Part shown: positions 2,703-64,000 of the stretch, one piece after another
Layout: every line of letters starts with the position of its first letter
How positions within the stretch are numbered: position 1 is the stretch's first letter
NCBI GenBank assembly: GCA_030390025.1
Contig: CM059432.1
Span: 85,128,001 to 85,192,000 of the forward strand
Direction of reading: 5' to 3'
From: Squalus acanthias
Taxonomy: Eukaryota
DNA: 64,000 nucleotides
Made by a program: the position numbers and the translations under genes
The notes under the pieces: model-generated
Database searches by the model: none
Seen by the model: only the letters and a program-made list of their open reading frames with translations
Told to the model about the DNA's origin: nothing

Positions 2703-2705
2703 TAG

Positions 2706-5519: not shown

Positions 5520-5537
5520 ATCCCACTTCTGACACCA
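5520..5537 (-). promoter_or_regulatory. Primer binding site complementary to the tRNA-Leu 3' end
   Basis: TGGTGTCAGAAGTGGGAT, 2 nt downstream of the LTR CA end. Confidence 0.85.
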
Positions 5538-8109: not shown

Positions 8110-8385
8110 CAGCCTTCCAGTCACAAAACACCCGTTGACCATTTACCTTTGCTTCCTGCCACTGAGCCAATTTTGGATCCAACTTGCCACTTTCCCTTGG
8201 ATTCCATGTGCTTCTACTTTTCTGACCAGTCTGCCTTGTGGGACCTTGTCAAAAGCCTTGCTAAAATCCATGTAGACTACATCAAATGCACTACCCTCAT
8301 CGACCCTCCTTCTTTCCTCCTCAAAAAATTTAATTAAGTTAGTCAGACATGACCTTCCCTTAACAAATCCATGCTGACTGGTCAT
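8110..8385 (-). mobile_element. CR1 RT fragment
   Basis: SQHGFVKGRSCLTNL..DFSKAFDKVP..WLSGRKQR. Confidence 0.85.
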
Positions 8386-9808: not shown

Positions 9809-9845
9809 ACAAGCTTTCGGAGCAGTTCGCTCCTTCGTCAGGTAA
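9809..9845 (-). ncRNA. Minimal hammerhead ribozyme motif in the inverted pLTR
   Basis: Reverse complement of the same core at 9815-9841. Confidence 0.7.
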
Positions 9846-10068
9846 GTTTAGCAGTGAGAGAATCTCCCAGAATTCACAATTTAAACACAGACAAAATATA
9901 TTCAAATCTTTCCCACATCAAAGAGCATAGCCAAGACAATGAGATGTGTCCCAGGGGGTCCAACGTGTCAAACCACCTGCTGGCTGCATATCCTGTCAAT
10001 CTGTGTAGGTTCTTGTGTTAGCCTTTTTTAAAAAAAAAACACCTGGGAAGACCGGCCATGATGTCAAG

Positions 10069-11046
10069 TCACGTTCTGTATCGTGACATGAACCCGATAT
10101 CGCGATTGAGGCCCTCCTCATGAGTGCGGAACTTGGCTATCAGTTTCTGCTCTATGATTTTGCGCTGTCGTGTATTTCGAAGGCCACCTTGGAGAACGCT
10201 TACCCGCATATCCGAGGCTGAATGCCCCTGGCTGCTGAAGTGTTCCCCGACTGGGAGGCAACCCTCCTGCCTGGCGATTGTTGCGCGGTGTCCGTTCATA
10301 CGTTGTCTCAGTGTCTGCATGGTCTCGCCGATGTACCATGCTCTGGAGCATCCTTTACTGCAACGTATCAGGTAGACAACGTTGGCCGAGTCACATGAGT
10401 ATGTACCGTGTACCTGGTGGGTAGTGTCCTCACGTGTGATGATGGTATCTGTGTCCATGATTTGGCATGTCTTGCAGAGGTTGCCGTGGCAGGGTTGTGT
10501 GGTGTCTTGGTTGCTGTTCGCCTGAAAGATGGGTAATCTGCTGCGAACGATGGTACTTTTGAGGTTAGGCGGCTGCTTGAAGGCGAGTAGTGGAGGCGTG
10601 GGGATGGCCTTAGCAAGGTGTTCGTCGTCATCGATGACATGTTGAAGGCTGCGAAGAACATGGCGTAGTTTTTCCGCTCCGGGGAAGTACTGGACGACGT
10701 AGGGTACTCTGTTGGTTGTGTCCCATGTTCGTCTTCTGAGGAGGTCTATGCGGTTTTTCGCTGTGGCCCGTCGGAACTGTCGATCGACGAGTCGAGCGTC
10801 ATATCCCGTTCTTACGAGGGCGTCTTTCAGTGTCCGTAGGTGTCCATCGCGTTCCTCCTCATCTGAGCAGATCCTGTGTATTCGCAGGGCTTGTCCATAG
10901 GGGATGGCTTCTTTAACGTGGTTAGGGTGGAAGCTGGAGAAGTGGAGCATCGTGAGGTTGTCCGTGGGCTTGCGGTAGAGTGAAGTGCTGAGGCGTCCGT
11001 CTTTGATGGAGATTCGTGTGTCCAAGAATGAAACCGATTCTGAGGA
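10069..11046 (-). pseudogene. Inverted duplicate of the 3' third of the Penelope ORF (thumb + GIY-YIG)
   Basis: Translation nearly identical to the C-terminus of 11276-13942 (A/T and W/R differences); lacks the RT catalytic core. Confidence 0.9.
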
Positions 11047-11149
11047 CACATCTCATTGTCTTGGCTATGCTCTTTGATGTGGGAAAGATTTGAATATATT
11101 TTGTCTGTGTTTAAATTGTGAATTCTGGGAGATTCTCTCACTGCTAAAC

Positions 11150-11186
11150 TTACCTGACGAAGGAGCGAACTGCTCCGAAAGCTTGT
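11150..11186 (+). ncRNA. Minimal hammerhead ribozyme motif in the 5' pLTR
   Basis: CTGACGA-A-GGAGC-GAACT-GCTCC-GAAA followed by palindromic AAGCTT. Confidence 0.7.
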
Positions 11187-11275
11187 AAAATTAAATAAAT
11201 CTGTTGGACTATAACCTGGTGTTGTGCGACTTCTCATTTTTGTCCACCCCAGTCCAACGCCGGCATCTCCACATC

Positions 11276-13942: not shown

Positions 13943-14164
13943 CTTGACATCATGGCCGGTCTTCCCAGGTGTTTTTTTTTAAAAAAGGCTAACACAAGAA
14001 CCTACACAGATTGACAGGATATGCAGCCAGCAGGTGGTTTGACACGTTGGACCCCCTGGGACACATCTCATTGTCTTGGCTATGCTCTTTGATGTGGGAA
14101 AGATTTGAATATATTTTGTCTGTGTTTAAATTGTGAATTCTGGGAGATTCTCTCACTGCTAAAC

Positions 14165-14201
14165 TTACCTGACGAAGGAGCGAACTGCTCCGAAAGCTTG
14201 T
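14165..14201 (+). ncRNA. Minimal hammerhead ribozyme motif in the 3' pLTR
   Basis: Same core; CTGACGA at 14169, GAAA at 14192. Confidence 0.7.
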
Positions 14202-15322
14202 AAAATTAAATAAATCTGTTGGACTATAACCTGGTGTTGTGCGACTTCTTATTTTAATCATAGGAAAGAATACTGCAGTCACTACCTGTTGTGACATCAT
14301 AAGTGTATTGAGGAAGATTTCCAATGGTCACTATTGCTAACAAGTTCATAGACATGTTCTTCTGATGTAGTTGCAATGTCACTACGAGTGGCAAACAGAG
14401 CAGTTCTTGTCTCCTGCATAGTAACTCCCAGTGAGATTGCAATTAAGGTTCTTATCTTCAGTACCAAGTTTTACTGGTTAGAATAAGCCAAGAATTCTGA
14501 TATGGGTGACTAATGTCTCAGTTATACTGAATGTCTGGCATTGGCACTGGAAATCCTTTTGCACCACAGCAATGCTAACTATACAGTATACTACTACTAA
14601 ATTCCTGTCCGTCGGCTCAGCAGCGATGATGGAGTCATAAACTATACAGTATAACATTAATGATTTTGGCATCAGTAGTGAGATTAACTGGGAGAGATGT
14701 TCTTGTATTGCTACCACTATAAATTGACCGCAGTATATTTATAGCTGGTGTGCAGACAACTCCTTAAAGTTTAAGCTTAAAGTTTAAAAATAATTCAGGT
14801 GGCTTGTTGCATAGCCTTTCAATTAGAAATGATAGAAAAACAAACCTGTCAGTCTATCCACAAAACCTGTGACCATGTCTGTGTATTGTTAGTAGGGTGG
14901 ACTCAACGGCAAGTGATGTGGCCAAGGATTTCCTTGAATCTAGTTCAAAAGCTATATTCAAACTGAAGCTGGTGCCTTCTATCAGCTCATTCACTGAACA
15001 TAGCAAAAACAATGGGGGCTAAATTGTATATCCCTCGAAAACGGACAAGGGGTTTTTGATGCGCGACTAAACTGTGCCCGTTGATTGCAGCTTTGTGCTG
15101 CCTGCTCATTTGAATGATCTCTGCGTCCAGCCAGCACTAACCATGCTGTTCATTGGCTGGACGCACCAGCAGGGGCCCAATATCATGAGTGGCTAGCAGC
15201 ATTTAAAGCTAGCCTGCACTGCTTAAAGCTACCCTGCACCTCTTAAAGAGGAGGTGTATTGTGGATGGAGCAGATGCTGGGAGTTGTGGTTGAAGTGAAT
15301 CTGACCTGGAAAAGAGTGAAAA

Positions 15323-23537: not shown

Positions 23538-24930
23538 AACAACAACTTGAATTTATATAGCGCCTTGAAGGTAGAAAAATGTCCCAAGGAGCTTCACAGA
23601 AGCCTTATCGGGCAAACTCTAACACCGAGCCACGTAAGGAGATACTAAGACAGGTGAGCAAAGCTTGGTCAAAGAGATAGGTTTTAAGTTGCACCTTAAA
23701 GGAAGAGAGAGGTAGAGCTGCAGATAGGTTTAGGGAGGGAATCCCAGTGCTTGGGGCCTAGACAGTTGAAGACACGGCTGGCATTGATGGGTCAAAGGAA
23801 ATTGGGGCTGCACAAGATGCCAGAATTGGAGGAATGCAGAGTTCTTGGAGTGTTGTAGGGCTGGAGGAGGTTCCAGAGATAGGGAGGGTTGTAGGGCTGG
23901 AGGAGGTTATAGAGATAGGGAGGGTTGTAGGGCTGGAGGAGGTTCCAGAGATAGGGAGTGTTGTAGGGCTGGAGGAGGTTCCAGAGATAGGGAGTGTTGT
24001 AGGGCTGGAGGAGGTTCCAGAGATAGGGAGTGTTGTAGGGCTGGAGGAGGTTCCAGAGATAGGGAGTGTTGTAGGGCTGGAGGAGGTTCCAGAGATAGGG
24101 AGTGTTGTAGGGCTGGAGGAGGTTCCAGAGATAGGGAGTGTTGTAGGGCTGGAGGAGGTTCCAGAGATAGGGAGGGTTGTAGGGCTGGAGGAGGTTCCAG
24201 AGATAGGGAGGGTTGTAGGGCTGGAGGAGGTTCAGAGATAGGGAGGGGCGAGGCCATGGAGGAGGTTCCAGAGATAGGGAGGGGCGAGGCCATGGAGGAG
24301 GTTCCAGAGATAGGGAGGGGCGAGGCCATGGAGGAGGTTCCAGAGATAGGGAGGGGCGAGGCCATGGAGGAGGTTCCAGAGATAGGGAGGGGCGAGGCCA
24401 TGGAGGAGGTTCCAGAGATAGGGAGGGGCGAGGCCATGGAGGAGGTTCCAGAGATAGGGAGGGGCGAGGCCATGAAGGAGGTTCCAGAGATAGGGAGGGT
24501 GGTAAGGGCTGGAGGAGGTTCCAGAGATAGGGAGGGGCGAGGCCATGGAGTAGGTTCCAGAGATGGGGAGGGAGGGGCGAGGCCATGGAGGAGGTTCCAG
24601 AGATGGGGAGGGGCGAGGCCATGGAGGGCTTTGAACACAAGAATGAGGATTTTAAATTTGAGGCACTGCTGGACTGGGAGCCAATGTAGGTCAACGAGCA
24701 CAAGGCTGATGGGTGAACGGGGCTTGGTGCAAGTTAGGAGAGTTTTGGATGAGCTCAAGTTCATGGAGGGAGATCGAAGGCCGATCAGGAGAGCATTGGA
24801 ATAGTCAATTCAGGAGGTAACAAAGGCATGGATGAGGACTTCAGCAGCAGATGGGCTGAGGCAGGAGCAAAGACACATGATATTGTGGAGATGGAAGTAG
24901 GCAGTCTTGGCGATGCAGAGGATATGGGGT
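23538..24930 (-). mobile_element. L2 LINE 3' fragment containing an expanded minisatellite
   Basis: L2 3' end at 23538; LHWLPVQQCLKFKILILVFKALHGLAPP. Confidence 0.85.
23847..24628. repeat. 36-bp minisatellite, about 22 units of two types
   Basis: 11 x GGGAG(T/G)GTTGTAGGGCTGGAGGAGGTTCCAGAGATA, then 7 x GGGAGGGGCGAGGCCATGGAGGAGGTTCCAGAGATA, then mixed units. Confidence 0.95.
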
Positions 24931-28359: not shown

Positions 28360-29605
28360 GGAATCTAATTGAATTTTTTGATGAAGTAACAGGGAGGATT
28401 GATGAAGGGAATGTAATGGATGTTGTCTACATGCATTTTAGGAACGTGTTTGACAAAGTAGCACATAGAAGGCTGATTAACAACATTGAGGCTTACGGAA
28501 TAGGTGGGTCAGTGGCAGCTTTGATAAGGAATTGGCTTAAGGACAGAAAACAGTGAGTTGTGGTAAATGGCTGTTTTTCAGACTGGAGGATGGTAGACAG
28601 TGGTGTTCCCCAAGGGTCAGTGCTGGGGCCACTGCTTTTTTTGATATATATAAATGACCTGGATATTGGAATACAGAGTAGAATTTCTAAATTTGCCGAT
28701 GACACCAAACTTGGGGGTGTGGCAAACAGTGAGGATGATACCAATCGACTGCAACAGCACATAGAAAGGCTAGCAGAATGGGCAGACAAGTGGCAGATGG
28801 AATTTAATACAGAGAAGTGTGAGGTAATGCATTTTGGCAGAAGGAACAGAGAAAGGCAATATACACTTAATGGCACAGTTTTAAAGAGTGTGCAGGAACA
28901 GAGGGACCTGGGAGTTAATGTGCATAGGTCCCTGAAGGTAGCAGGACATATTGAGAGAGTGGTTAGCAAAGCATATGGGATCTTGGGTTTCATAAATAGA
29001 GGTATTGAGTACAAAAGTAGAGAAGTTATGCTGAACCTTTATAAAGCGCTGGTTAGGCCACAACTGGAGTATTGCGTCCATTTCTGGTCACCACACTTTA
29101 GGAAGGATGTGAAGGCCTTGAGAGGGTGCAGAGGAGATTTACCAGAATGGTTCTGGGGATGGGGATCTTAGCTACAAGGACAGGTTGGAGAAGCTGGATT
29201 TGATTTCATTGGAGCAAAGGAGGTTGAGGGGTGATTTGATAGAGGTGTACAAGATTATGACGGGTTTGGATAGGCTAGACGGGGAAAGGCTGTTCCCACT
29301 AGTTGATGGTACAAGGACTAGGGGACACAGATTTAAGGTTTTGGGCAAGAGATGTAGGGGTGGGGTGTGAGGAAAAACTTTTTTAGGCAGCGAGTGGTGA
29401 GGACCTGGAACTCGCTGCCAACGGAAGTGGTGGAAGCAGAAACACTCAATGTTTTCAAGGGGAGACTGGATAGGCACTTAAGGGAAATAAACTTGCAGGG
29501 CTACAGGGATAGGGCGGGAGAATGGGACTGACTGGATTGCTCTACAGAGCGCAGGCACAGACTCAATGGGCCGAATGGCCTCCTTCTGTGCCGTTATGAC
29601 TCTAT
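28360..29605 (+). mobile_element. CR1 LINE 3' portion
   Basis: GVPQGSVLGPLLF, KFADDTK, RPQLEYC; tail TATGACTCTAT. Confidence 0.9.
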
Positions 29606-30498
29606 GGGGGAAAAATTCGGTTGGTTGCGCCTCCCGTTAGCGCCTTAAGAGGGCGCTAATGGGGCGCAAAGCAACTAGCGCCCGGGCGCGGCGATGTTTG
29701 CGCCGCTCGCAAAATTAACTAGACATTTTGCGATGGCACTAAACAGTACCTCCACGATCTCCTGCGCTGGCAGATCGTGACGGCAGTTGAGTGCGCAACG
29801 CCCCGGTAGCGCCCCTGAGCGGATATTGAGTGGCGCCCCCTGCCTTACCGCCTGCCGCTAGCAACGACAGGTTGAGGAGAGCGTTTTGCAGTCAGGAAGG
29901 GACTGGGGGAGCGCTATTTAAAGGCGACCGCTTCCTGCCTTTTTTTGTTGACGACATTTTTGAACCACGCATTCTGAGAGAGAGAGAGAGAGACTTCTGG
30001 AGAGATTCAACGCTGTGTGAAGGAGTTTTGGGTACTGAGCAGCACTTTGCAGGTTCATTTTGATTTGCCCTTCCTTGTATCGATTTAGAAGAGACTGTTG
30101 GGGCTGCACTCTGAGCTCTTTCCCTGGGCCTCTCCATTGTTATTTCCAGCAGATTTGATTTACAGGTCTCCCCAGGCCGAGATTCAAGGCTGCAATAAGC
30201 AGGATGTGGATGGAAAGCAAGATTAACCCTCCCCTTTAAGAACTGGCCGGCGCCATTGTGTCTGTGCTCCATTGCTGACTGACATCACATGAGCTTCGCC
30301 AGCGCTCTGAGTTAGCGCCTCGCTCCTCGGCCTTTGCGCCTTAAGACAGATGTGTAGCGCCTGATTTAGTGCTCCAATCACCTCCAGGGGCGATAAAAGT
30401 CAAGTTTGCAGTCGGAGGTGATAATTAGCGGCAGGCGCTAATCTTTGCGCCCGGCCGATAATTGCGCCCCAAACGGGGCGATACTGAATTTTTCCCCC
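29606..30498 (+). mobile_element. Non-autonomous Harbinger (MITE), copy 1
   Basis: TIR GGGGGAAAAATTCGGT / ACTGAATTTTTCCCCC; flanks TAT/TAA; highly similar to 43193-44090. Confidence 0.9.
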
Positions 30499-30509
30499 TA
30501 ATACTCTAT

Positions 30510-31338
30510 GGGCTGGATTTTGTAATGGGGAGCTTTTGGAGGTGGGACTCCCTCTTGGCAGGTTTCAGTCCTGCCTCCATCAACTTCTGGCCAACCCACG
30601 CTTTTCCCTTGATTGACCTTGTTAAGCCCGCCCAGCGGGTTTAGCAGGCCAATTAAGGGAAAGCCGGTTACAGAGAACGTCAATGTATGACGTTTCATCT
30701 GTCAAAAATGTTTGACAGATGAATTGTCATCGTTTGACAGCTCTGTGAAGCTGTCAAACACTGACATTCTCTGTTGTTTGATGAGTTCTTGAATACAAGA
30801 ACTCATCAAACCTCTTTCTTTTGCAGAAATTAGATGGTTGTTGCATTGGAGAATGCAACGGCCATCTGTCATCTCTGCCGCGGAGGTGCAAGACTCTCCG
30901 CATACCCAACTCTTGAAGCCTGCAGGAAGAAACAAAGGTAAGTAAACTTTTTCTATCACTTTCCATTTACCTAACATACTTACCTCTCCACACTTGCACC
31001 CATCACTTACCTTCACAGCGCACTTTTGCACCCCTCCAACCCCCGCAGACCCACTACTCGGGCGGGGTTCGGAGCCTTCGGGAAGCCCGCACTTGTGGGT
31101 AAAATGGGGATAATCCTCTTATCTGCCTGTTAACTACCTGTTAACATGCGGGTAAGTGGTACTAATCCCCTTCCCGCCTCCAAGGAGACGGGACCCGGCG
31201 CGGGTCGGCTACCCGCCTCCTGGCAAGATGGCACGGAGGCGGGTTGGGGGCGGGTTGGGCACCCGCCCCCAGATTCTGCCATTTTCCCGGCAGTCCCGCT
31301 TCCATACCCGCCTCCCCAGGGCTGGTAAGATCATGCCC
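30510..31338. mobile_element. Non-autonomous Harbinger of a second TIR family
   Basis: GGGCTGGATTTT...AAGATCATGCCC with TAT TSD on both sides. Confidence 0.7.
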
Positions 31339-35775: not shown

Positions 35776-36342
35776 TATAACTATAGCTTTTGAAGACACT
35801 TGGGAGACACTATGGGCTGGATTTTGAATGCCCCGTGGAGTCGGGTTTGGAGGCGTGTGGGGGGTTAAAGTAGCAGATTCGGGGTCCCGACCCCATCCAG
35901 ACTCCAACACACCTCCACGCAATTTTGACAAAATGGGTCGCGGGGTTCCCGACTCCGTCCCGCCTCCAAGAGGCGCAAAAGGCCATTAACGCTCTTAACT
36001 ATCCCTAAAGTGGCTCAGTAATGCCATTTTGAACCATTTTATATACTTTAACCCTTTTCCCACATGAAGCACACCTGATGGGAAACACTCCAGTGAAACC
36101 TGACGGGAGCACAAGTGGATTGCTGACTATCAGCTGCAGCTCAACCTTTAAATAGGAGATTTGATCAGCCATCAATTGCAGGTGGCAGGACTTTGTTGTA
36201 ACAGGTCTGGGGGAACTTTTAGAAGGCATAACCACAGCTCTGGAAGTTTGGAGCCTGACACCCATCTGCAGTGTGACCTCCTGGGAAACCCCTCTCGCCA
36301 CCCTCATTGAGGGCTTCCTCAACTGAGACATATACCAGAGGC

Positions 36343-37596
36343 ATGGGAGCCATTTATTTCCTTCCCTCCTGGATATCCGATGAGGAGGAACAGCAGCTGC
36401 GGCACCAGCAGAACCATGAACAACAGCACCACCAACAGCAGCAGCAACAGCAGCAGCAACAGCAGGAGCGCCAAGCTGCTGCTCACCCACCTGAAGCTGC
36501 ACAGGACAGAAGGGGCCAGCGCATGGAAGGCCGTCGGCACAGGAGATACCCCCCAACCAGGGTCTACAGACAGAGGGTCAGCTACCTCAACATGTCTGAG
36601 CAGCAGTGCCAAAGGCGGCTCCGACTTTCGCGAGAGGTAGTGGGTGACATCTGCGCAATGCTGCAACAAGACCTGGAGCCCAGAGGACCAGGTGGACGCC
36701 CCTTACCAGTGGCCGTCAAAGTCACCACCGCACTCAACTTTTTTGCCTCAGGCTCATTCCAGGGATCAGCAGCAGACATCAGCGGCATCTCCCAGGCGGC
36801 CGCACACACCTGCATCACGCAGGTAACCGATGCCCTCTTTGCCATCGCGCACAATCACATCCATTTCACCAAGGATCGAGCAAGTGTCACGGCGCGTGCG
36901 GTTGGATTAGCTAATCTGGCAGGCTTTCCAAGGGTGCAGGGTGTTGTTGACTGCACACATGTGGCCCTTAAGGCACCCCATCGCAATCCAGGTATTTTTG
37001 TCAACCGCAAGGGCTTCCACTCCCTCAACGTTCAGCTGGTGTGTGACCACAACAAGGAAGTTCTGCATGTTTGTGCCAAGTACCCTGGCAGTTGCCATGA
37101 CTCCTTCATACTGCGCCAGTCTAGTGTGCCTCCGCTATTCAGTCCGCCAGACCAACTTCACGGATGGCTACTTGGAGACAAGGGCTATCCCCTGAGGACG
37201 TGGCTAATGACGCCGTTGAGGAGCCCATCCAACGCAGCTGAGGAGAGCTACAACTCCAGCCACATTTCCACCAGATCCATAACTGAGCAAACCATCGGTA
37301 TGCTGAAGATGCGCTTCAGATGCCTGGATAGATCAGGTGGAGCCCTGCAATACTCAGCAGCCAGGGTCTCCAGAATCGTCGTGGTTTGCTGTGCACTTCA
37401 CAACATGGCACAGCGTCGTGGCTTACAGATGCCGGAGGACCAAGTGGCTCCTCACATAGCCTCCTCAGATGAGGAGGAGGAGGAGGAGAGAGAGAACAAA
37501 CAAGTTGCAGAGGTCCCTCAACCAGCGGCAGCATTAGGCGAGACCATAGCTGCCCGGAATGCAAGGAACGCACTCATCTTGGCCAGATTTGCTTAG
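36343..37596 (+). CDS. Harbinger HARBI1-like DDE transposase, 417 aa, intact, with N-terminal polyQ
   Basis: [39 protein letters not shown] at 36343. Confidence 0.93.
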
Positions 37597-37853
37597 CCTA
37601 GACAAGAAAGCACTTTTGCCTCGCAGCTTCTTACCAGAGCTACAACAATGGCCCAGACCCAGCGGATCCCTAACAATGTGACCACCATACTGACAATTGC
37701 AAGTTATCCTAAGGCCTCATTGTGGAAGTCCCATTAGCGAAATGACAGATGCCACAACTGCAGCTGTAGCCATCAGAGTTTTTATTTACACTTTAGACCT
37801 GATGGCTTCTTAACAATACACATCAAAATTCACCCAAGCGACTACCCTTGTGA

Positions 37854-39777
37854 TTATTTGTGCAGTTTCTTTCTCTTATGCGTGCTCCTACGTGGTGCTT
37901 CCCCTGTGGCTTCAGCAGAAGTGGAGGCCCCCTGCTCACTTTGTTGCTGCTCCTGTCTCGACTCCTTTGGCGGGCATCCTCTGGGGTTGCGAACCTGAGA
38001 GGGCTCGGCAACAATGTGCTGCTCCTGCGGCTGGGCAGGGGTTGAGACGCTGATCTCACTTGGGTGCGGACTCTGGTGGGGCTCTGAGCGAGGACCAGTC
38101 AGTGGCATGGAAGTGTGAGCGCTTGGAGAGGAGCCCCAACCTCCTTGTTGTGTGCCACCAACATCCCTATCATGGGTCAGGTCCACCTCAGCGCTTGCAA
38201 GTGGCTTGAGAGCACCTTACTGCACATCAGGGGGACCATGGGGACCCGTATCTGCACTGGAAGTCCTACTCAGAAGGACTTCCATGAAGGTTTGGTTTCT
38301 TTGTTCAATAGATGACCATCGCTCCTCCAGAGATGTCATTCTATTCAGAACAATGACCATGTTTTCTGCACTCTGGCGACTTATCACCTCCATGGAGGTT
38401 GCCATCCTTTCCATGGTGATGCGTTCATGCGCCAATGACTCCACAAAGGCTCTGCTCATGTTCGCTATGGACTCCTCCATTCGCTCCACACTCGCAGCGA
38501 CCCTGGAGATAAAACCTGTCAGAGACTCCTGCATCTGTTCCTGGTGTCCCAGCACTGATGATCTTATGGATGGCCCCAGAGGCAGAGGGTCGACATGCAG
38601 CTGAGCCGAGCTAGGAGAGTCCTGCGCCCTCCGACTAGGACTCTCCACTGCTGTCCCTGTCTCCACCATCTGCTGATGCTCACTTGTGAGCTGTGATACA
38701 CCAGGTGACAACACTACTCTATGTCCCGAGGGTCCCACCGAGGTGTGTGTGTCTGCGCTGGTGCTGGGTGCGCTTAGTTCTGCTGACGCTGCGCCCTCAG
38801 AGGTTGCAGCTTCCTCTGAGGAGTCTGTCTGCTCAGGCTGGTCCTCCTGGCTAGTGGGAACGGGTGCTTGCGATGGTCCTGTGGGGGAGTAAAGGAAAGA
38901 GTCAGAGATGTGATGCCAAGGTTACATGCATATTGCATATTGCAGATGATCATAAATCCATCTGTTAGAGCTTCAGATTCATTATCAGCGACTCATGCAA
39001 TGTCAATGAGAGAGATGGAACACTATTCAGTCACCAGCTTGCTCTGCTGCACCCGTCTGTCTGTCCCCCACTTGCGTTTCCTCCTGGATGCCCACGATCT
39101 CCAGGACCGCCTCCTCCCAGGGGGTGAGCTGGGCTAATGAGGGTGGGCCTCCTCCTGTCCTGGTTCTTTCCCTTTTATTGTGAGCTCTCTTTTTCTGCAA
39201 TGAGGGAGACAAGTGGAGTTTGAGTGAGATTGAAGGAGTGAGTGTAGAGAGTCCATAGCATAGATGCTTAGAAGGAGACAAAGATGGAGTGAGGTGGCAA
39301 GACCAAGGGCCCTCCCTGTGTGTTGTAAGTTGTTTTCATAGCATGGCAGTGATAGGGAGTGTGAGGGCTGCATAGTGGAATAGTAAGGTGAATGTGACCA
39401 TAGAGGGAGAGGGAATGGGTAAGGGTGCATGGATGTCAGTGTCAAGTGGAATATGGAGGAAGAGGTTGCTAAAGCTGAGTGCTGGTGAGGAGAGGCAATG
39501 GGGATCAAATTGAGGGTGAAGGGAAAGTCATACTCACTTTAGCAGTACGTAGAAGGTCATGAAACCTCTTCCTGCACTGGATCCAGGTCCTGCTTGTCAG
39601 AGATAAAGAGGTGACCTCCTGGGCGATCTGGACCCACACAGCCTTTGTCTGCTGGGGAGGCTTCTTCCTCCCTGAGGAGGGGAAGAGCACCTCCTTGTTG
39701 GCTCTTGCTCCATCTACCAAAGCCTGAAGGGAAACATCATGGAACCTGGGAGCAGCCCTGGGCCATTGGCTGGCCAT
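37854..39777 (-). pseudogene. Harbinger Myb/SANT gene, exons 39777-39538, 39194-39035, 38878-37854, with one in-frame TAA at 38219-38217
   Basis: APRFHDVSLQALV..W..RTWIQCRKRFHDL; GT-AG introns of phase 0 and 1 keep the frame; ORF 37854-38186 is in frame beyond the stop. Confidence 0.8.
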
Positions 39778-40057
39778 TCCTGCTGCAGGTGCTGAAATTA
39801 CAGGTCCAAAAGCTTGGCAGCCTGCAGAGGAAGCAAGGCTTGCTGCATACCTTAAATGCATTAGCAATGATGACGTCATCGGAGGCGACTTTCAGACTGG
39901 AATAACTCATTGGCCATGGGTTTCCACATGTGGGAACTCAATTGGCCAATTAAGTTAAAATCACATCATTAATCCACATTAATCTGGAGTCAGGGGGGCA
40001 ACACAAAATGTGGGTAACACGACCCCAACCCGACCCCAAGACAAAATCCAGCCCAAT

Positions 40058-41110
40058 GGGTGCAAAATTGGGCTTGATAACGCCCATTTTTTGGGCGCTA
40101 CATGGTCCCTTAAGATTCCAAAATAGTGTCTGACACGAAGTGCGCACGACGCCATATTGGTAAAGGGGTGAGCGCGCACACGTAACATCCGCTGGCAGCA
40201 TGCAGAGCAGGCAGATCATGACATCAATCAGGGAGCAATTCTTGTACCTGAACTTCAGCAACGACCAATGTTTGATACCATGGGGGTCAGAACATGCAGA
40301 CGTGCCTCTCCTCCTCTAGTCAGTTCCTGCTGCCTTCGGTTTTCCTGCAAGAGAGAGTGAAGTGTGTCAGTGAGTGTTTGGGTGATGTGGCTGTCATGGT
40401 TGAATTGCTGGCAGTGTGTGCAAGCTGTGAGATGTGGGTGTGAGGCTTGCAACAGTGCTAAGTGGGTGAGGGTGAGGTAAAGCTTATGAATGTTAGGGTT
40501 GTGTCCTTATTGATAGAGATTGTTGGTAGATGAGTTGTGGGGGTGTGGTGAATTGAGCAGTGGCTGAGGCTAGTGGTGCATTTGGTAGGATATGCTATTT
40601 GAAGATGCGTTCACTGTCCTAGACCATTGTGCGAGATCATTAAACTTCTTCTGGCACTGCATCCATGGCCTTGGGGCTAAAATCCTGGCATTGATCTCTG
40701 CAGCTATCTGTTCCCACTGCCTTCTCATCATATGTCTGGAAGGCCTCTTGCCCCCTGAGGATACAATACATCTTTCCTCCTTTTCACCTCCACCACCAAG
40801 AACCCCAGTGCAACGTCTGACAACCTGGGTGACTGCTCTCTCACATGGTCAGCCATTCTTCACTCTTTCCCAGGTCAGATTGACGTGTAGAACAACTCCC
40901 AGCACCTGCATCTCCCCTTTATGAGGTGCAGGCTAGCTTTAAGTAGTGCAGGCTAGCTTTAAGTTAGTAATGATATGGGGCCCCCTGCTGATGCATGCAG
41001 CGAATGAACAGTGCAGGTAGTGCTGGCTGCACGCAGAAATCATTGTAATAAGCAGGCAGCATGAAGTTGGCATGCTGCCTGCATTCCACTCAATGGGCGC
41101 GGGTAAATCA
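40058..41110. mobile_element. Internally deleted Harbinger: one terminus plus decayed Myb exons 1-2 on the minus strand (ATG about 40856)
   Basis: Starts GGGTGCAAAATTG directly after the AAT flank of the previous element; ..RRQQELTRGGEARLHVLTP. Confidence 0.65.
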
Positions 41111-41610: not shown

Positions 41611-43142
41611 CTTTAAGTCCAAGCTCATTAGCGTTACAGTCAAAAGGTGGACCAATATCAGATGCACTCTAATCGCAAGTCATGATTGCCACAGGCTTTT
41701 GCCAGTTCTTAAAGGGGAGGTTCATTGATGCTGCAGAACCTCATTCTCAGAATTGCTGGCTGTGCAGCTGCCTCAGCAAGCAGCAGCAGGTCAAGGAGAA
41801 GGAGCCAGAGGACTGAAGCAGCTGTACTAATGGCAGATCCATGCCCCAGGGAGAGAGCCCACAGATTCAGCATTCAAATGTTGGAGGCGTTGGTGTTCGC
41901 TGTGGAGAGACGGAGGGTGGTGCTCTACCCGGCAAGTGGCAGGATGCCCTCGCCGCAAGTCTTCAGCGCCATATGGAGGGAGGTAGCGTAACACATCTCG
42001 GGCAGCACTGTTGTCCCCAGGACCCACACACAGTGCAGGAAGACATTTAATGACCTCACTCAGGTGGTCAGGGTGAGTGAAGGCTTCAACAAATGCTACA
42101 TACCACCATCTGAACCACAGTCTTCACACACTACCCAAAGCACCACACCCCCAGCACTCACCCACCAACAATCTCTACCTACCAACACTCACACCCACAT
42201 CTCACACCTTGCACACAATGACAGCTATTCAACTATAGCAGGCACATCACCCAAACACATTGCTTCACACTTACTCACACACTTTCCTTTATCTTGCAGG
42301 CCAAGGTGGCTCACAACAGGAGGGAGCAGGTGCGCACAGACGGGGGACAAGCCGACACCCAACCACTGTCTGAGCTGGAGACTCGAGTGCTGCACATTAT
42401 TGGGCACCAGGTGGTGGGCGCCGTGGCCACCAGTGACATTGACCCCCTTGGGGACAACAACGGTTCGTTCATCCTTACTCCTTCTTCTCACATGCCACTT
42501 CCCCCTCACCCCACAAGCGTTTTGCACTTTCCAGCTAATCATGCTGTATGCATGCAATTCTCCCTTCCTGCCCCCCTCCCCTCACCTTAACCCGACTCTT
42601 GTGCCTTTATGCTTTCAGATAATCACCAAGCACCTGAGTAGCCTGACCCTGAGGGCACCGTAGAGAGCGAGGCAGGAGAAGAGAAGGAGGAAGAACACAC
42701 CTCATCACTGCATGTCTCACCCACAGGCACCAGCTCAGATATTGGCACTACACATTCTTTAGGGGCTAGTATAGTAGCGGGATCTACACAGAGTGAGGCA
42801 CCGGGGACAAGTGGGCTGCAGCAAGGCCAGGGGGAAAGGGTAGCTTGGGGGCCAGCTCCACGGAGGGCGAATTCACGTGTGAGTTCTGCTGCACAGCAAT
42901 TAGATGAGGACCTCGATGGGGTGACCCTTAGAAGGAGAGTGATGGGCATGCACAGGGAGATGATAGGCGCAATGGCAAGGGTGCCTGAGAGCCTCTCGGC
43001 TATGATAAGGAGTGTGGAGGTGTCCACCTCCAACATTGCACAAGGCTCTGTGCACACCATGGAGCCCATCATTTCCAGTCTGGAAAGGATGGTAAACTCC
43101 CAGAGAGACCGTGGCGACCCAGACCAGATGCCGCGTGTGATT

Positions 43143-45639
43143 TGTAGAATTTGCAAATAATCGCGATTTAAAAATAATGAGTAAGAGACATAGGGGGAAA
43201 AATTCAGTTGGTTGCGCCTCCCGTTAGCGCCTTAAGAGGGCGCTAATGGGGCGCAAAGCATCTAGCGCCCAGGCGCGGCGAAGTTTGCGCCGCTCGCGAA
43301 ATTAACTAGACATTTTGCGGTGGCGCTAAACACTACTACCACGATCTCCTGCGCCGGCAGATCATGACGTCAGTCGAGTGTGCAACGCCCCGGTATCGCC
43401 CCGGAGCGGATATTGAGTGGCGCCCCCTGCCTTACCGCCTGACGCTAGCAACGACAGGTTGAGGGGAGCGTTCTCCAGTCATGAAGGGAAAGGGGGAGCG
43501 CTATTTAAAGGTGACCGCTTCCTGCCTTTTATTGTTGGTGCCATTTTTGAACTACGCATTCTGAGAGAGAGAGGGAGAGACTTCTGGAGAGGAGAGATTC
43601 AACGTTGTGTGAAGGAATTTTGGGTACTGAGCAGCACTTTGCAGGTTCATTTTGATTTGCCATTCCTTGTATCGATTTAGCAGAGACTGTGGGGGCTGCA
43701 CTCTGAGCTCTTTGCCTGGTACTCTCCATTGTTCTTTCCAGCACATTTGATGTGCAAGTCTCTCCAGGCCGAGATTCAAGGCTGCAATGAACAGAATGTG
43801 GATGGAAAGCAAGATTAACCATCCCCTTTAAGAACTGGCCCGTGCCATTGTGTGTGTGTTCCATTGCTGACTGACATTACATGAGCTTCGCCAGCGCTCT
43901 GAGTTAGCGCCTCACTCCTCGGCCTTTGCGCCTTAAGACAGGTGTGCAGCGCCTGATTTAGCGCTCCAATCACCTCCCGGGGCATTAAAAGTGAAGTTTC
44001 CAGTCAGTGGCGATAATTAGCGCCAGGCACTAATTTTTGCGCCCGGACGATATTTGCGCCCCAAATGGGGCGCGACTGAATTTTTCCCCCATACAGTTTC
44101 GTAAACACAGCTTTATTTCAGCAAAATGCTGTCAGGTTTCAAAACGGACACAAGCAGCCTGTAAAATGGCCACCACGCCTCGTGGCAGAAGGTTCTAGAC
44201 TTTCAGCAGGCAGACAAGATGGCGTTTCAATAAACATTTCAGCAAGATCGGACAGGACTCAGCATATTGAGATAAGACAAGACGAGATCGTTTTGCATTT
44301 TAACACCCAAGCAAGGAATATAAGTGCTGGAATCGGGTTTTTCCATGCACAAATGAGAGCTATTGTACTGGGCAATCAAGGGGCCCATCCAAAAGACATT
44401 GATACGCGAATTCCCCACGGCTCTACGATGAGAGAGCCGTTCGCGGGTACTCACAGCAAGAATTCGGAGGCCCCCAAAACCCCTCCAGGGAGACTCTTAG
44501 CCAGTTCCACAAGGGGAGAAATATTAACGGGTACTCAGACAGTTACAAGTATCACCGAAACCCATTAACGATAAGTACCACCCCATACAAGAAGTTTGAG
44601 CGCCAAAACATGACAAAAGATGAACATTAAGATTGGGCGGGAGATAAGGAATTACAGTACTATAACTGTAGTGTCCAAACGTCCATCTTTCTCTTATTTC
44701 CTTTGACTCGCTAGAGAACTCTTGACTCTTATTCTCTGATCCGCTGATTTTTCCGGGAGTCAACCTCGTGGCTTACCGCGAAGATCTGTGGAGAGCTGGT
44801 CTGCGAAGGCCGGTAAGCGGGTGCACCATCCCGAGAAGTCGGTAAACGGTGTTGGAACCGAAGGCCCGAGAGGAGATGAGATGAGATGAGATGAGAAGAG
44901 AAGAAGACGACTACACATGCCGCCGCGGTCAGTAAACCCCGACCGCGCCCGAAAATCGATTAACCACTTCTTCGAATTCTATCGGATACTCCACAACTGG
45001 CCCAGGAAGACTTTTCTTCGAGTTCTACCGACAACTGGTGTCGGGCAGAGTAAGACTCTTCTTTGAACTGTATCTGGAGTCCGAGGTCAACACAGATCTT
45101 CATGACAGCAGACGGTCCAGCCTGCTAGCCGGAGCAAAGCGAGTAAACAAGTGGGGTACAGAGACCCCTGATTAACACGTGGATAGTCAGGTGCTGTGGT
45201 GAAAACATCCGAGCAGAGTTTCGGAATTCTCCGAGTTATCACGAGTGGTGAGCATGAGTCTCGATCCTACAGATCTAGATTAGGACAGTGTGTGTCCCCT
45301 TTTACGATGTGTCGTGCGCTCCTCGTTTCCCTAAACCTAGTTGCATAAATGTATGTAAGTTTGTACTGTCATTAATCTGTGCTTATGACATGTATTTCGT
45401 AATCTTGAATAATATGCAATAAAGATTTTCCATTTCGCACTATTCAACCGGGTCTACCTGAGTTTTCTCTGCATTATTGCTCTCGCACCTAAGTCCAGTG
45501 TCAGAACCGTAAGGGCGAGTGGGTCGAACCACTCACAGGCATCTAGTGTCACCAAGCTGGCTGGAGACCAGAACAGGCAACAAGGCCTAACCCCGCACTA
45601 GCACCCAGGCTAAGCACAGAGCCACGCGAACCCCTTACA
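43143..45639 (+). mobile_element. Long solo LTR (about 1.6 kb without the nested MITE)
   Basis: TGTA...TACA termini, flanks GATT/GATG, AATAAA at 45418, interrupts the Myb exon in register. Confidence 0.75.
43193..44090 (+). mobile_element. Non-autonomous Harbinger (MITE), copy 2
   Basis: Perfect 16-bp TIR GGGGGAAAAATTCAGT; ATA TSD at 43190-43192 and 44091-44093. Confidence 0.93.
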
Positions 45640-57960: not shown

Positions 57961-58079
57961 GGCATGACGCGATCTGAACTCCAATAGTTAAAGGGCCAAT
58001 CCGGAGATGGAATTTCATCATGATAAGTTGCAACATTCTTACCTTGCCAGTCACAATTCATATCTTTTATCTCTGATCG

Positions 58080-59010
58080 GACCTTCACGCGTGCAGCAGC
58101 AGCAGTTGGTGGACCTCGCTGATGACGATTCCTCAGAGGAGCTGATTCCTTCTGAGGGTGTATCAGACTCATGTATACCGTACACCAACTCAGATACTTA
58201 GACAGATAGCTGGGTTTTCACCTGGTGACTCACACTTCACAAGTGAGCTAGAGCAGATGGTGGTGGCAGGGACAGCAGTGGAGAATCCATGATAGAGGGC
58301 ACACCTGGCCACAGATGCTTTGCCCCGGGGGCCATTGATGAAAAGGAAAATCATTAAGCAGCAGCAGAGAATGTGCAATGCACTGACAGACCCCAATTGC
58401 AGAGAGAATGTAGGAGTCTGCCTCAAGCATGAGCAGGTTGATGTCGCAGGGCATTGCGATGATGTGTTCTTCCATGGATAGAGTGGCCAGCACCGTGGAA
58501 CATCAAAAGCTGCAATCAAATGAGTCCATGCACACCTTGACCACAGCCATGCACAGTCTGGATGCCAACATGTCTGCCACCTTAAATAGGATGACCTTAG
58601 CCTTGGGCTTACAGTGTCGCACTGATCAGCACCAAAATAATTTCCAGCAGAATGGTAGCAGTGAAATGCGGCTGGGCCATGAGCGGGATGATGGTGAAAA
58701 GGGACATGGAAGTAGGGACTCCACTCAAAGCGCTTTTGTTCCTTGCCCGTTGCCCACCCCAGACAGTACCCGACTTGCTGGTTCATCTCCCGATGGCCGA
58801 GACTGCCCGTGCACAGGTGCAGGTGGAGCAGTCTTTGGTGCGGCCCTTATGGGCTCCAAAACTCAGAGGTTGTCAGCCAAGAGCATCTCAGTAGTCAGAG
58901 CAGGGATCTGAGCAGCCTGCCTCGACCTCTGCTGAAGTCACAGGGGTTGCACAATGTAGGAGTGGAAGGAAAAGCAAGGCTTTGTAGATGCACAAAGATA
59001 TGCACATGGG
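58080..59010 (+). pseudogene. Exon 3 of a Harbinger Myb gene of the 35814 family, decayed
   Basis: Acceptor near 58080; SMDRVASTVE..ATLNRMT resembles SMERMATSME..VLNRMT of 38217-38738. Confidence 0.55.
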
Positions 59011-59122
59011 TGTATGAGAAATGTAGTGTTGTGAAGTTTCTATTGTTTAATTCAAGCACATTTATGTTATTCTTTTACACCACTTTCTCATCTTGCCCAT
59101 TCTTGGTTGCTGAGTGGCAACT

Positions 59123-59966
59123 TAAGAACATAAGAAATAGGAACAAAAGTAGGTCATGCGGGCCCTCCAGCCTGCTCCACCATTCAATAAGATCATGGCT
59201 GATCTTCTACCTCAACTCCACTTTCCTGTCTGATCCACATATCCCTTGATTCCCTAGAGTCCAAAAATCTATCTATCTCAGACTTGAATATACTTAACAA
59301 CTCAGCATTCACAGCCCTTTGGGGTAGAGAATTCCAAAGTAGAGAAGCACCAAGGGGCAGAAAAAATTGGTGGGAGTTGTCTATAGGCCTCCAAACAGTA
59401 ATGGTAATGTAGGGGATGGCATCAAACAGGAAATTAGAGATGCATGTAACAAGGGTACTACACTAATCATGGGTGACTTTAATCTACATATAGACTGGCC
59501 AAAACAAATTAGCAATAATACTGTGGAGGATGAATTCCTGGAGTGTGTACGAGATGGTTTTTTAGACCAGTACATTGAGGAGCCAACTAGGGAACAGGCT
59601 ATCCTAGATTGGGTATTGTGTAATGAGAAGGGGTTAATTAATAATCTTGTTGTGCGGGGTCCTTTAGGGAAGAGTGACCATAACATGATAGAATTCTTCA
59701 TTAAGATGGAAAGTGAAGAAGTCCAATCTGAAACGAGGGTCCTAAATCTAAACAAAGGAAACTACGAAGGTATGAGGAGTGAGTTGGCGATGATAGATTG
59801 AGGAGCTTCATTAAAAGGCATGATGGTGGATAGGCAATGGCTAACATTTAAGGAATGAATGCATGAATTGCAACAGTTATACATTCCTTTCTGGCGCAAA
59901 AACACAAAAGGAAAAGCGGCCCAACCATGGGAAACAAACGAAATTAAGGATGGTATTAGATCCAAA
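59123..59966. mobile_element. CR1 3' tail (-, 59123-59340) joined to a CR1 APE endonuclease fragment (+, 59341-59966)
   Basis: VYRPP, MGDFN, LDWVL, SDHNMI. Confidence 0.85.
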
Positions 59967-60478
59967 GGGGGAAAAATTCAGTTGGTTGCGCCTCCTGTTA
60001 GCGCCTTAAGAGGGCGCTAATGGGGCGCAAAGCAACTAGCGCCTGGGCACAGCGATGTTTGCGCCGCTCGCGAACTTAACTAGACATTTTGCGGCGGCGC
60101 TAAACTTTACTGCCGCGATCTCCTGCGCACGCAGATCTTGACATCATACGAGAGTGCAACGCCCTTGTGGCGCCCCGGAGCGGAAATTGAGTGGCGCCCC
60201 CATCCTTTCCGCCTGGCACAACCAACGACCGGAAGACTGGAACGCTACCAGTCGCTGTGGGGCTGGGGGGGCGCTATTTAAAGGGGGCCTCTTCCTGTCT
60301 TTCTCTGTGGTTGACATTTTTGCACCACTCGTTCTGAATGAGAGAGAGAGAGATTCGGAGAGAGAGAAAGAGAGACTTCTGCATTGAGTCAACGCTGTGT
60401 GAGGTAGTTTTGGCTACTGATCATAACTTGGCAGGTACTTTGGTTTTTGGCCTTCATAACTTTGATTGCTAAGAGACT

Positions 60479-61639
60479 ATGGGGGCTGCACTGATTGGGG
60501 GCGTCGTCCTGCGCCACCAGAATCGGAGGACACAGAGACGCAGAGAGAGAGTGGCAATCATGGCCAGACGGAGGAGGGCCAACAGGCCTCTGTACAGGAG
60601 ACCTTACCCTCCCAGGGTATATCGTCAACAGCTCTCCTACATTCATATGTCTGAGGAGCAGTGTTTGCGAAGGCTGCGCTTCAGCAAGGAGGTGGTCACT
60701 GAGCTCTGCCACCTGCTGCAGCCAGATCTGCAACCTCAACTGAGGTCCAGGACGTCTCTGTCAGTGGCAGTGAAGATCACAGTGGCTCTGAACTTTTATG
60801 CCACTGGCTCATTTCAATCTGCTACTGGGGACATCGCCAATATCTCCCAGTTCGCGGTGCATTGCTGCATCCGTCAGGTCACAAATGCCCTCTTTAAAAG
60901 GAGACGAGAGTACATCTCTTTCCCCATGACCCCAGACAAGCAGCATGAACGCGCTATGGGCTTTGCGAGGATAGCGGGCTTCCCCATGGTGCAGGGCGCC
61001 ATTGACTGCACGCATGTGGCTTTGCGTGCTCCGCATGAGAATGCCGAGGATTTCTGGAACAGAAAGGGGTTCCATTCCTTGAACGTTCAGTTGGTCTGTG
61101 ACCACAGACAGCTGATACTCGCTGTCAATGCCCACTATCCTGGCAGCGGCCACGATGCATTCATCCTGCGCCAGACTACTGTGGCAGAACTTTTTGAGGC
61201 ACCGCATCAGCCAGTTGTTTGGCTTCTCGGGGACAAGGGGTATCCACTGAGCACCTGGCTGATGACACCGCTCCGTACGCCCAACACCCCTGCTGAGCTG
61301 CGGTACAACGAGAGCCATCAAGCTACCAGGAACATCGTTGAGCACACAATCGGCGTGCTCAAGCAATGGTTCCGCTGTCTGGACCATTCTGGAGGAGCCC
61401 TGCAGTACTCGCCTGAGCGAGTTTCCCACTTCGTAGTTGTGTGCTGCATGCTGCATAACATGGCAATCCTCAGGACCCAGCCAATGCCACCAGGCCTTGG
61501 AGCACCACCAGAGGAGGAGAAGGAAGAGGAGGAAGAGGAGGAGGAGGATGATCATCAGCAGCACCAAGGCGGGAGGGCGGCCCACAATGTTGAAACTGCA
61601 AGGGCCGTCCGTCAACGGCTGATAGCAAGCCGCTTCTAG
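60479..61639 (+). CDS. Harbinger HARBI1-like DDE transposase, 386 aa, intact
   Basis: [37 protein letters not shown], acidic tail. Confidence 0.95.
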   Translation: MGAALIGGVVLRHQNRRTQRRRERVAIMARRRRANRPLYRRPYPPRVYRQQLSYIHMSEEQCLRRLRFSKEVVTELCHLLQPDLQPQLRSRTSLSVAVKITVALNFYATGSFQSATGDIANISQFAVHCCIRQVTNALFKRRREYISFPMTPDKQHERAMGFARIAGFPMVQGAIDCTHVALRAPHENAEDFWNRKGFHSLNVQLVCDHRQLILAVNAHYPGSGHDAFILRQTTVAELFEAPHQPVVWLLGDKGYPLSTWLMTPLRTPNTPAELRYNESHQATRNIVEHTIGVLKQWFRCLDHSGGALQYSPERVSHFVVVCCMLHNMAILRTQPMPPGLGAPPEEEKEEEEEEEEDDHQQHQGGRAAHNVETARAVRQRLIASRF

Positions 61640-61938
61640 GCCCCTGCTGAGGAAATGGCTTCTGCCATTGAGAACAACATGAATGAAACCAACCCGCAAC
61701 CCCTAAGCCGGCCAAGGCACCAATGATTCCAAAGACCAAACATGTATATTTTGAATACAAAAACTTATTTATTTCAGAAACTCTGTGTGTGTCATTTCCT
61801 CATAACAAACTAATAGAAAGAAACACAAAAACACAGTCATTAACAGAACTGGTTCTCATAACCTGGAGATAATGTTCAAAAGTTTGACCACGAATCTTAG
61901 CCTTTAATAAAAAAATTACCAACATTTTGTCACACCTC

Positions 61939-63844
61939 CTACTTTTTGCCCTTCGAGGGTGATCTCCTTCCCTTGCGCACTTCCCCCCTTCCCACCCTAC
62001 TGCTCCTCCGTAATGGGACCTCAGAGGCTGCAGCAAGACTGGTGGAAGGCTGCTGATTGTCAGAACCTGAGACTGCAGATGCCCTTGAAGGACGGCCTCG
62101 ACCAGCTCTGGGCCTGGAGGGCCCGGCTGCAGACTGCACCAACTCTGCATGGGCGGCAGCAGTCTGTCCTACGGGCAGTGGCAAGTGCAGTGGAGAAGTG
62201 ACAGTGGTGGCAGCAGGAATGCTGTCATCTTGAGAGAGGACAGCAACTCCCTGCTCGACCGACACACTGGCACTCCCACGGGGCAGCACTTCAGCATCCG
62301 GAGCAATCTGCTGGAGCACAGATTGCTGGCCTGCTGCGGCGCGGTGACAGCCCCGGGGAAATGTGTACGAACCATCGAGGATGGCAGCAGTCAGTGCTCG
62401 CGTGGCCTCAATCTGAGTCTGCATGAGAGCAGTCTGAGACTGAATTGCAGCACTAAGCTTTAGTGTGGCATCCGCCTGTGCTACAGCGAAGTGCTCCACA
62501 CTCCTTGCCAGTGATTCAATGCATTCGGGCACCCTTCCCACTGCACCCATGAGCTCAGTGTGCATGTCCACCGCCTGGGTGTTCATTTCAGCAATGAGCC
62601 GCTCCTCCTCTGCGTCCAGTGCAGCAGGAGTCGCTGGCATACTCTCCCTCCGGGGAGAAGGCCCCCGTTCTTCCCTACCCCCATGGCGTTGCTGCAGCCC
62701 GCTGGGTCCTGGAGCTTCACCCTCATCAGACCCTTCCCCCCTGCTCCCCTCCAGGGAAGGCGTGTTCCCAGTGTGGGCATGGGCTTCCTCGGGAGAGAGT
62801 GGCACTGATGCTCCACCTTCATCTTCCTCCTCGCCTGCAGCTTCACTCCCACTGGCAGCTTGAAGGCCCGTCTCCTCAGCTGGTGAATCACCATCTGAAA
62901 GCAGGGAGGTACAAGAGTGGTTTTAGCGTGAGGACAGGGTGACAGTAAGGGAGGAATAAGTGCAGCGATTTAGTAAGTTGGATTGAAAGTGTCAAAGGCT
63001 GGTGTTGTGAGGGACAAGTGGAAGGACAGAGGACAAAAAGGTGCTGACCTTACCATTGCTGTCCAGAACGGGGTCGGCGTCTCCAGTGGCGACGGGACCG
63101 ATCACCCGGCTTGCCACAATCCTCTGGACGCGCGCCTCAAGATCGCTGAGGGGTTGCAGCTGAGGCCGCCCTCCACCCGTCCGTTGCTGCTGTCTCCTAT
63201 TATGAGATAGCTTGGCCTGCAAGAAAAAGGACGGCGTCTGAGTAAATATACAGCCATGGTCTTGCCTTATGTGCCTCCCATAGGTGAATAGCCCTACTGT
63301 ATGCAGCCATGGTCTTGCCTGATGTGCCTCCCATAGGTGAATAGCCCTTACTGTATGCAGCCATGGTCTTGCCTGATGTACCTCCCATAGGTGAATAGCC
63401 CTTACTGTATGCAGCCATGGTCTTGCCTGATGTGCCTCCCATAGGTGAATAGCCCTTACTGTATGCAAAGTGTGGAATGTGCGTGTGTGTTTCATGAGAG
63501 GGCCATAGGTGTTGGATGAGTGTTGTGCATTGGGGTTTTAAGACCCTCTGGCCATAGAGTGAGGTTGAGATGGAGGGATGGAGAGGTATTGAAAAAAAGC
63601 CACTCACCCTGACGATCCGAGTGAGGTCGTTGAATTTTTTTCGACATTGTACATGGGTCCTGGGCACCATGCTCCTGCAGGAGACGCTCTGAGCCACCTC
63701 CCTCCACACTCTTCTGTACTCGCGCGGCAAAGGCCTCCTGCCACTCTCAGGGAAGAGTATACATCTTCTGCGCTCCACCGCGCCAACCAGAGCATCCAAG
63801 GCCCGCTCGCTGAAGCGCTGAGCTCGTTCTCTCACCCTCTCCAT
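61939..63844 (-). CDS. Harbinger Myb/SANT (trihelix-like) DNA-binding protein, predicted 451 aa; exons 63844-63608, 63216-63054, 62894-61939
   Basis: RAQRFSERALDALV..W..RTHVQCRKKFNDL; GTGAGT/TTGCAG and GTAAGG/TTTCAG junctions; 237+163+956 nt forms one open frame with a basic C-terminus. Confidence 0.88.
63251..63465. repeat. Four tandem 53-54-bp repeats in Myb intron 1
   Basis: CAGCCATGGTCTTGCC..ACTGTATG starting at 63251, 63304, 63358, 63412. Confidence 0.92.
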
Positions 63845-64000
63845 AGTCCTTGGCTGGAAGATTTAGGCACAGGTCTCTCCAGGCCGAGATTCAAGGCTCC
63901 AATGAGCAGGGTGTGGCTGGAGTGCAAGATCGACCCTCCCCTTTAAGAACTGTCTGGCGCCAGTGTGTCTGTGTTCCATCGCTAACTGACAGCACCTGCG

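Follow-up and report, generated by a model that had tools for sequence, protein, structure and literature searches.

In the PIF/Harbinger transposons of zebrafish and rice, a transposase and a separate Myb-like protein are both required for transposition (PMC2836001, PMC9392472). We analyzed an element with the same two genes in a 64,000-nucleotide stretch of Squalus acanthias DNA (assembly GCA_030390025.1, contig CM059432.1, positions 85,128,001 to 85,192,000 of the forward strand; hereafter the window), where it begins at position 59967 and runs past the window's right end. The original prediction had presented this copy as an apparently intact vertebrate element that may be functional as it stands. 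The zebrafish element Harbinger3_DR, which likewise pairs a transposase with a Myb-like protein and is the source of the mechanism considered here (PMC3016246, PMC2836001, PMC9392472), was rebuilt from a consensus and transposes in human cells, whereas the shark copy is a natural one. The target of Harbinger3_DR is a palindrome centred on CWG; the duplications and flanks in the window are instead A/T-rich triplets (ATA/ATA, TAT/TAA and TAT/AAT at the elements starting at 43193, 29606 and 35814). Rice Ping and Pong are also a two-protein system that duplicates 3 bp of its target (target-site duplication, TSD), and their miniature inverted-repeat transposable element (MITE), mPing, is moved by both its parent and a sister element; they differ in being plant elements whose natural activity has been demonstrated (PMC2836001).

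Among vertebrates, one close counterpart is Harbinger-Snek of sea kraits, a two-gene Harbinger that has expanded massively and has both non-autonomous derivatives and intact copies; of the latter, 269 are reported in Laticauda colubrina and one in L. laticaudata; RNA reads cover both genes of the single L. laticaudata copy, and activity was suggested (PMC8437027). Compared by description, it differs in its host lineage and in its inferred horizontal arrival, whereas the shark family has its nearest proteins in elasmobranchs. LatiHarb1 and other coelacanth Harbingers are very abundant and accompanied by non-autonomous forms (PMC3787270, PMC9179366). Harbingers make up 9.3% of the coelacanth genome (PMC3787270), and evidence for their expression comes from a mouse PAC line (PMC3787270, PMC9179366); the likeness is again one of description, and the host is a lobe-finned fish. 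PMC9179366 also reports Harbinger expression in teleosts and no detection of Harbingers in elephant shark. Intact, transcribed vertebrate Harbingers have already been published, a precedent in sea kraits that the implied novelty of the original prediction overlooked. Within the open-access literature searched, we came across no study centred on Harbingers of sharks, nor any vertebrate Harbinger with native activity for which transposition in cells had been shown. The main text of a report on vertebrate structural variants (PMC13320814) does not mention Harbinger.

The element at 59967 is a two-gene PIF/Harbinger transposon, as had been proposed, and essentially a full-length one. It has a DDE_Tnp_4-type transposase carrying its acidic residues, a separate Myb/SANT gene and a left terminal inverted repeat (TIR), and it belongs to a dispersed, multi-copy family. 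We conclude that this copy is probably not active but lightly decayed and impaired, its reading frames having stayed open by chance. Its left TIR (59967..59982, plus strand) was judged to be 16 bp long from the two ends of a MITE at 43193-44090, with which it shares 14 of 14 bases, and it can be called intact, as first described. It is followed by a CpG-rich left subterminal region and transposase leader (59983..60478, plus strand); the CpG observed/expected ratio is 0.99 over 59967-60300 compared to 0.45 for the whole window, and a TATA-like box at 60275-60282 may have a promoter role. The transposase (60479..61639, plus strand) and the Myb-like gene (61939..63844, minus strand) converge on a common 3′ spacer (61640..61938) that carries AATAAA on both strands, at 61906 on the plus and 61773 on the minus strand. 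Beyond the Myb-like gene, its leader and the right subterminal region (63845..64000, minus strand) are interrupted by the window end. This last piece is 78% identical to MITE positions 43703-43885, and because the MITE continues 205 bp further to reach its TIR, the right TIR of the element is predicted to lie about 205 bp on, near 64205, for a total length of about 4.24 kb. The element sits in a long interspersed nuclear element (LINE) fragment (59127..59966, plus strand, PF14529, E 4e-10), which we take to be CR1; two LINE paralogues in the window extend beyond the insertion point. The left flank ends in AAA, and the right flank lies past the window end.

By analogy to the zebrafish and rice systems (PMC2836001, PMC9392472), the Myb/SANT protein would bind the element ends and the transposase N-terminus and bring the transposase into the nucleus, and the RNase-H-like DDE transposase would excise the element and reinsert it with a 3-bp duplication. 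The transposase is encoded by a stop-free open reading frame of 386 amino acids that matches PF13359 (DDE_Tnp_4) with an E value of 1e-38. As reported in the original prediction, its DDE motifs are present; the catalytic acidic residues D176, D226, D252 and E288 are all kept, as are R284 and K295. Two residues past the conserved Lys295, position 297 is tryptophan (codon TGG). Among 61 distant relatives (below 45% identity and with all four catalytic acids present, retained after filtering 130 new proteins), this position is arginine in 55 and tryptophan in none; among 114 closer, mostly shark relatives it is arginine in 78 and tryptophan in three, and the window paralogues have arginine in four of five cases and histidine in the fifth. 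The TGG codon is a single CpG-type transition away from an arginine codon, and Trp297 likely arose by CpG decay. At position 247 the copy has valine, where the family letter in sequencing run X1 (depth 603,716 of 603,892) gives glycine, and none of 112 aligned relatives has valine. Retention of all conserved transposase residues, as expected of a natively active element, is thus not seen here. Judged from these alignments, Trp297 and Val247 weaken the case for a working transposase, and the arginine-to-tryptophan change two residues past Lys295 would likely reduce or abolish its activity. Other candidate lesions were set aside: a suspected loss of Arg195 was rejected when this residue was found in the alignment, and Trp193, His219, His303, Gln51 and His317, which have CpG-type codons and arginine as the commonest residue, were not counted, as these columns vary among sharks.

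Several observations weigh against decay of this copy. Valine at 247 does occur in 2 of 60 distant relatives, and Trp297 is not established as private to this copy, its codon site (61367) lying outside the 40 of 449 difference rows considered. The transposase departs from the consensus at only four of 116 strongly conserved columns, and just one of 75 well-covered relatives has fewer departures; at 78 columns conserved among the distant relatives it has six departures, within their own range of 4-20. The catalytic residues and splice signals are all intact, as is the CpG-rich left end, and an AlphaFold model of the transposase is confident (predicted local distance difference test score 88, predicted template modelling score 0.83). 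The modelled fold is mixed alpha/beta, with weak matches that are mostly DDE transposases or integrases (best E 8e-3); a fold search with this model gave no matches at E≤0.001, and a sequence search of the PDB with the transposase gave none at E≤1. These features of preservation, together with a place among the best-preserved sequences of its alignment, canonical splice sites, open frames and MITE ends that match its own at 58-59 of 60 bases, are what would be expected if the copy were itself a working autonomous element, with both proteins functional and mobilizing itself and the MITEs. We nevertheless consider this unlikely, given the changes at two conserved positions, putative RNA contigs that carry the family's letters rather than those of this copy (detailed below), and a right end that lies beyond the window. 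The description of the element as apparently intact is limited on two counts: its right TIR and TSD fall beyond the window end, and its open frames conceal changes at conserved positions.

Comparison of the copy with its family was based on contigs from four sequencing runs, mapped to 58001-64000 at 90% likeness; the contig tables covered 15 of the 228 joints, 24 of the 3,295 loose ends and 40 of the 449 difference rows. Neither the intron 1 joint nor the insertion junction falls within these rows, which counts neither for nor against them. Thirty-two of these difference rows fall inside the element, of which 14 were analysed further, and at eight sites another letter accounts for at least 96% of X1 depth. 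These eight copy-diagnostic sites (three non-synonymous, four synonymous and one intronic; 60733, 61218, 62025 and 63635 are among them) set a divergence floor of 0.2%. In the contigs of two runs, X16 and X18, which are presumed to be RNA, the family letter accounts for all depth at seven of the eight sites (X16) and at eight of eight (X18). The RNA seen so derives from other copies, although these contigs cannot prove the silence of the copy at 59967.

In a simulation of neutral decay that allowed for frameshifts and for hypermutation at CpG (600 replicates each), both frames stayed open in 62-71% of replicates at 0.2% divergence, 30-42% at 0.5% and 14-26% at 0.8%. Because 14-26% are still open at about 0.8% and the family is large, open frames are expected by chance. 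The second complete Harbinger of the window (35814-40054) has a stop-free transposase of 417 amino acids and a Myb gene with one stop. Mutation in sharks is slow; with the rate of the epaulette shark, 7e-10 per site per generation (PMC10587355), a divergence of 0.2-0.8% corresponds to 3-11 million generations, an order of magnitude only since the rate is borrowed from another shark. On this view, most of the family's expansion would predate the divergence of the related species in which it is now found; the copy at 59967 would have landed in the LINE fragment and gained roughly 0.2-1% substitutions since. Against this, the copy-diagnostic letters might mark a small, young sub-lineage, and the divergence estimate is rough, since rare variants are lost from contigs and the reading of X1 covered only 55% of it. 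Taken together, Trp297, Val247, the eight or more off-family sites and frames that can be open by chance weaken the proposal that this copy is functional as it stands.

The Myb-like gene facing the transposase was confirmed as a sound three-exon model. Exon 1 (63608..63844, 237 nt) encodes the Myb/SANT DNA-binding domain (PF13873, E 8e-10); exon 2 (63054..63216, 163 nt) is equal in length to a paralogue exon at 42300-42462; and exon 3 (61939..62894, 956 nt) encodes an acidic linker, a hydrophobic, helix-like segment at amino acids 226-310 and a basic C-terminus. Joining these through two GT-AG introns, intron 1 (63217..63607, 391 nt, phase 0) and intron 2 (62895..63053, 159 nt, phase 1), all on the minus strand, yields a 451-amino-acid frame whose sole stop is terminal, as had been predicted. 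Both putative RNA runs join out intron 2 exactly (62894 to 63054, CT..AC), and neither of the two DNA runs examined does so; X16 and X18 were guessed to be RNA, and are taken as RNA-like since they, unlike the DNA runs, join this intron. The joint is represented by one contig per RNA run, with short sides of 18 and 29 letters at 90% likeness, and is therefore evidence at the level of the family. The proposed check of the predicted junctions against RNA was thus borne out for intron 2, for the family rather than this copy. The two runs stem from two organisms (A and G below) and two studies, and the family produces spliced Myb RNA.

Placement of intron 1 is supported by an annotated sawshark protein (P0008) that spans its junction ungapped (amino acids 5-113, 47% identity, E 9e-24) and by matching splice sites and phases in two window paralogues: the copy at 41848-43019 agrees in its donors, in its acceptor and in the 163-nt length of exon 2, while in the element at 35814-40054 the intron phases of the Myb gene equal those seen here. 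No homologue of exon 3 was found at E≤1e-5, and none of exon 1 among longer proteins at E≤1e-12. In the ESM Atlas, a single unnamed cluster from chordates came up at 0.91 and clusters of Myb/NAIF1 at less than 0.8; these serve as leads only. Intron 1 contains a 54-bp tandem repeat of 4.1 units (63247-63467), the units differing by two substitutions and one deletion in all; it is seemingly rare in the family, as the bin has a depth of about 3.5e5 and positions 63283-63294 one of 552-8300. At 62437-62438, a contig of organism G has 21 additional in-frame bases, and loose ends in organism A have similar letters; this insertion marks a sister subfamily whose Myb protein is longer by seven residues.

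Evidence of the family extends well beyond this assembly. Twenty of the 24 listed sequencing runs, from nine studies, contain the stretch or part of it, and 15 runs from seven organisms contain at least half of its sampled 31-mers. The shared fraction is 0.73-0.77 in organism A, which is the same organism, and 0.52-0.57 in organisms B-G; read as divergence, these values correspond to differences of about 0.8-1.0% and about 2%. A share of 0.12 in organism H was left out of account. Over the element, summed depth has a median of about 5e5 in X1 and about 1e6 in X7, with flank contigs at 16-17 and 31-36, giving an element-to-flank ratio of about 3e4 in both runs and thus in two organisms; summed contig depth gives no copy number and no ranking of genes, and is read only as very many copies in both. 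On this reading the family is very large and has a comparable standing in the two species. Letters of X7 that looked species-specific (60632, 61215 and 63762) were rejected, as the depth counted there makes up little of the depth of the bin, and 62798 is weak for the same reason.

The near-identity across seven organisms could also reflect recent horizontal transfer among sharks instead of inheritance, as Harbinger transfer has published precedents (PMC9179366, PMC8437027) in fish and sea kraits and organisms B-G differ from the window by only about 2%. We regard this as very unlikely: contigs of organism C also lie on the flank, at 58094 and 58752, at the low depth of 31-36 and as expected for a close relative, and the nearest proteins listed are all from elasmobranchs and 55-68% identical. 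These proteins are annotated as genes, under the name 'putative nuclease HARBI1', rather than as transposons, and belong to the same transposase lineage; the best among the matches listed is from Pristiophorus japonicus (68%). At E≤1e-50 there were 228 proteins, and nearly all of the best 120 of these came from sharks and rays. None of the matches listed exceeded 68% identity, so that the search of this protein collection did not recover the family itself.

The same database label, along with two open frames, might suggest a domesticated HARBI1/NAIF1-like gene pair maintained by host selection. A domesticated pair of this kind would be single-copy and lack transposon ends, and the element at 59967 has a TIR, a location within a LINE fragment and very high copy depth; the window also holds six transposase-coding loci, and this copy has its own changes at conserved residues. 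Domestication is accordingly extremely improbable, and the label has evidently been given to many transposon copies.

A different possibility is that an active sub-lineage exists elsewhere in the genome and that the copy at 59967 is a passive member, movable in trans. Splicing of Myb transcripts, seen in two organisms from separate studies, is consistent with this, as are 8,945 of the 59,345 mapped X1 contigs that are at least 99% like the stretch (flank included), a simulation that predicts many frame-intact copies, and terminal sequence that is conserved between lineages. The remaining 50,400 of the 59,345 X1 contigs, however, are only 90-99% alike (again with the LINE flank included), and the comparable relative depth of both organisms speaks for an expansion that is older and shared. 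We therefore hold an active sub-lineage to be possible, though doubtful, and retain the reading of a lightly decayed copy in an older family. It is somewhat more doubtful still that the family continues to transpose, with natural copies, either that at 59967 or siblings with Arg297 and Gly247, working without reconstruction. If this were true, it would supply a vertebrate PIF/Harbinger with native activity, a tool for gene transfer and material for a first structure of the two-protein transpososome. A huge, lightly diverged and transcribed shark family is a practical place to seek working natural copies; the copy at 59967 is a poor candidate and no better a test case than its many siblings, so that the lead is the family as a source.

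Two MITEs in the window are related to the element, one at 29606..30498 (plus strand, flanks TAT/TAA, a match of two in three) and one at 43193..44090 (plus strand, perfect 3-bp TSD ATA/ATA). Both are internal-deletion derivatives of a sister Harbinger lineage with an identical deletion breakpoint, which joins the initial codons of the transposase gene to those of the Myb gene while leaving both TIRs in place, and both have the features of Tourist-like elements, being short and non-coding, with both TIRs, a TSD and a common internal deletion. Their first 60 bases match those of the element at 59967 at 58-59 positions, and 121 of 130 terminal bp match, but further in identity is only 78-84%; the two differ from one another at 74 of 893 sites. 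They are old products of the sister lineage rather than recent progeny of this copy. Cross-mobilization of the MITEs by proteins of this family is plausible in principle because of the Ping/Pong precedent (PMC2836001). The suggestion that the element may mobilize the MITEs of the window thus stands as far as the ends are concerned, and not as a claim of recent descent. Depth in each of the RNA-like runs is highest at the ends of the element (60001-60200 and 63801-64000), and loose ends at 63869 match MITE sequence, which suggests that MITE-derived RNA is common, with the reservation that contig depth is a poor measure. The MITE at 29606 is flanked by repeats of a short ACTCTAT motif that resembles a LINE 3′ tail repeat (29594-30510).

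The second complete Harbinger (35814-40054, 4,241 bp) belongs to another family and has TIRs at both ends, with flanks TAT/AAT (a match of two in three). Its transposase (36343-37596) is 55% identical to that of the element at 59967 and has arginine at the position of residue 297 and glycine at that of 247, and its three-exon Myb gene is interrupted by the in-frame stop at codon 354 of 474. A further Harbinger-like TIR starts 3 bp past the right end of this element (40055-40058), as if two elements shared one target triplet. The region from 15014 to 57960 is a dense nest of further Harbinger remnants, with transposase pieces at about 21.1-21.9, 46.5-47.4, 55.8-56.4 and 57.0-57.5 kb and Myb pieces at about 15.3-17.1, 40.6-40.8, 41.8-43.0, 45.7-46.2 and 53.6-55.5 kb. 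Elsewhere in the window, 9716-11279 and 12965-14255 form an inverted duplicate of about 1.3 kb at 99.4% identity, with shorter internal repeats, which is either a recent duplication or an assembly artefact, and a tandem array with offsets of 36 and 72 bp occupies 23847-24627.

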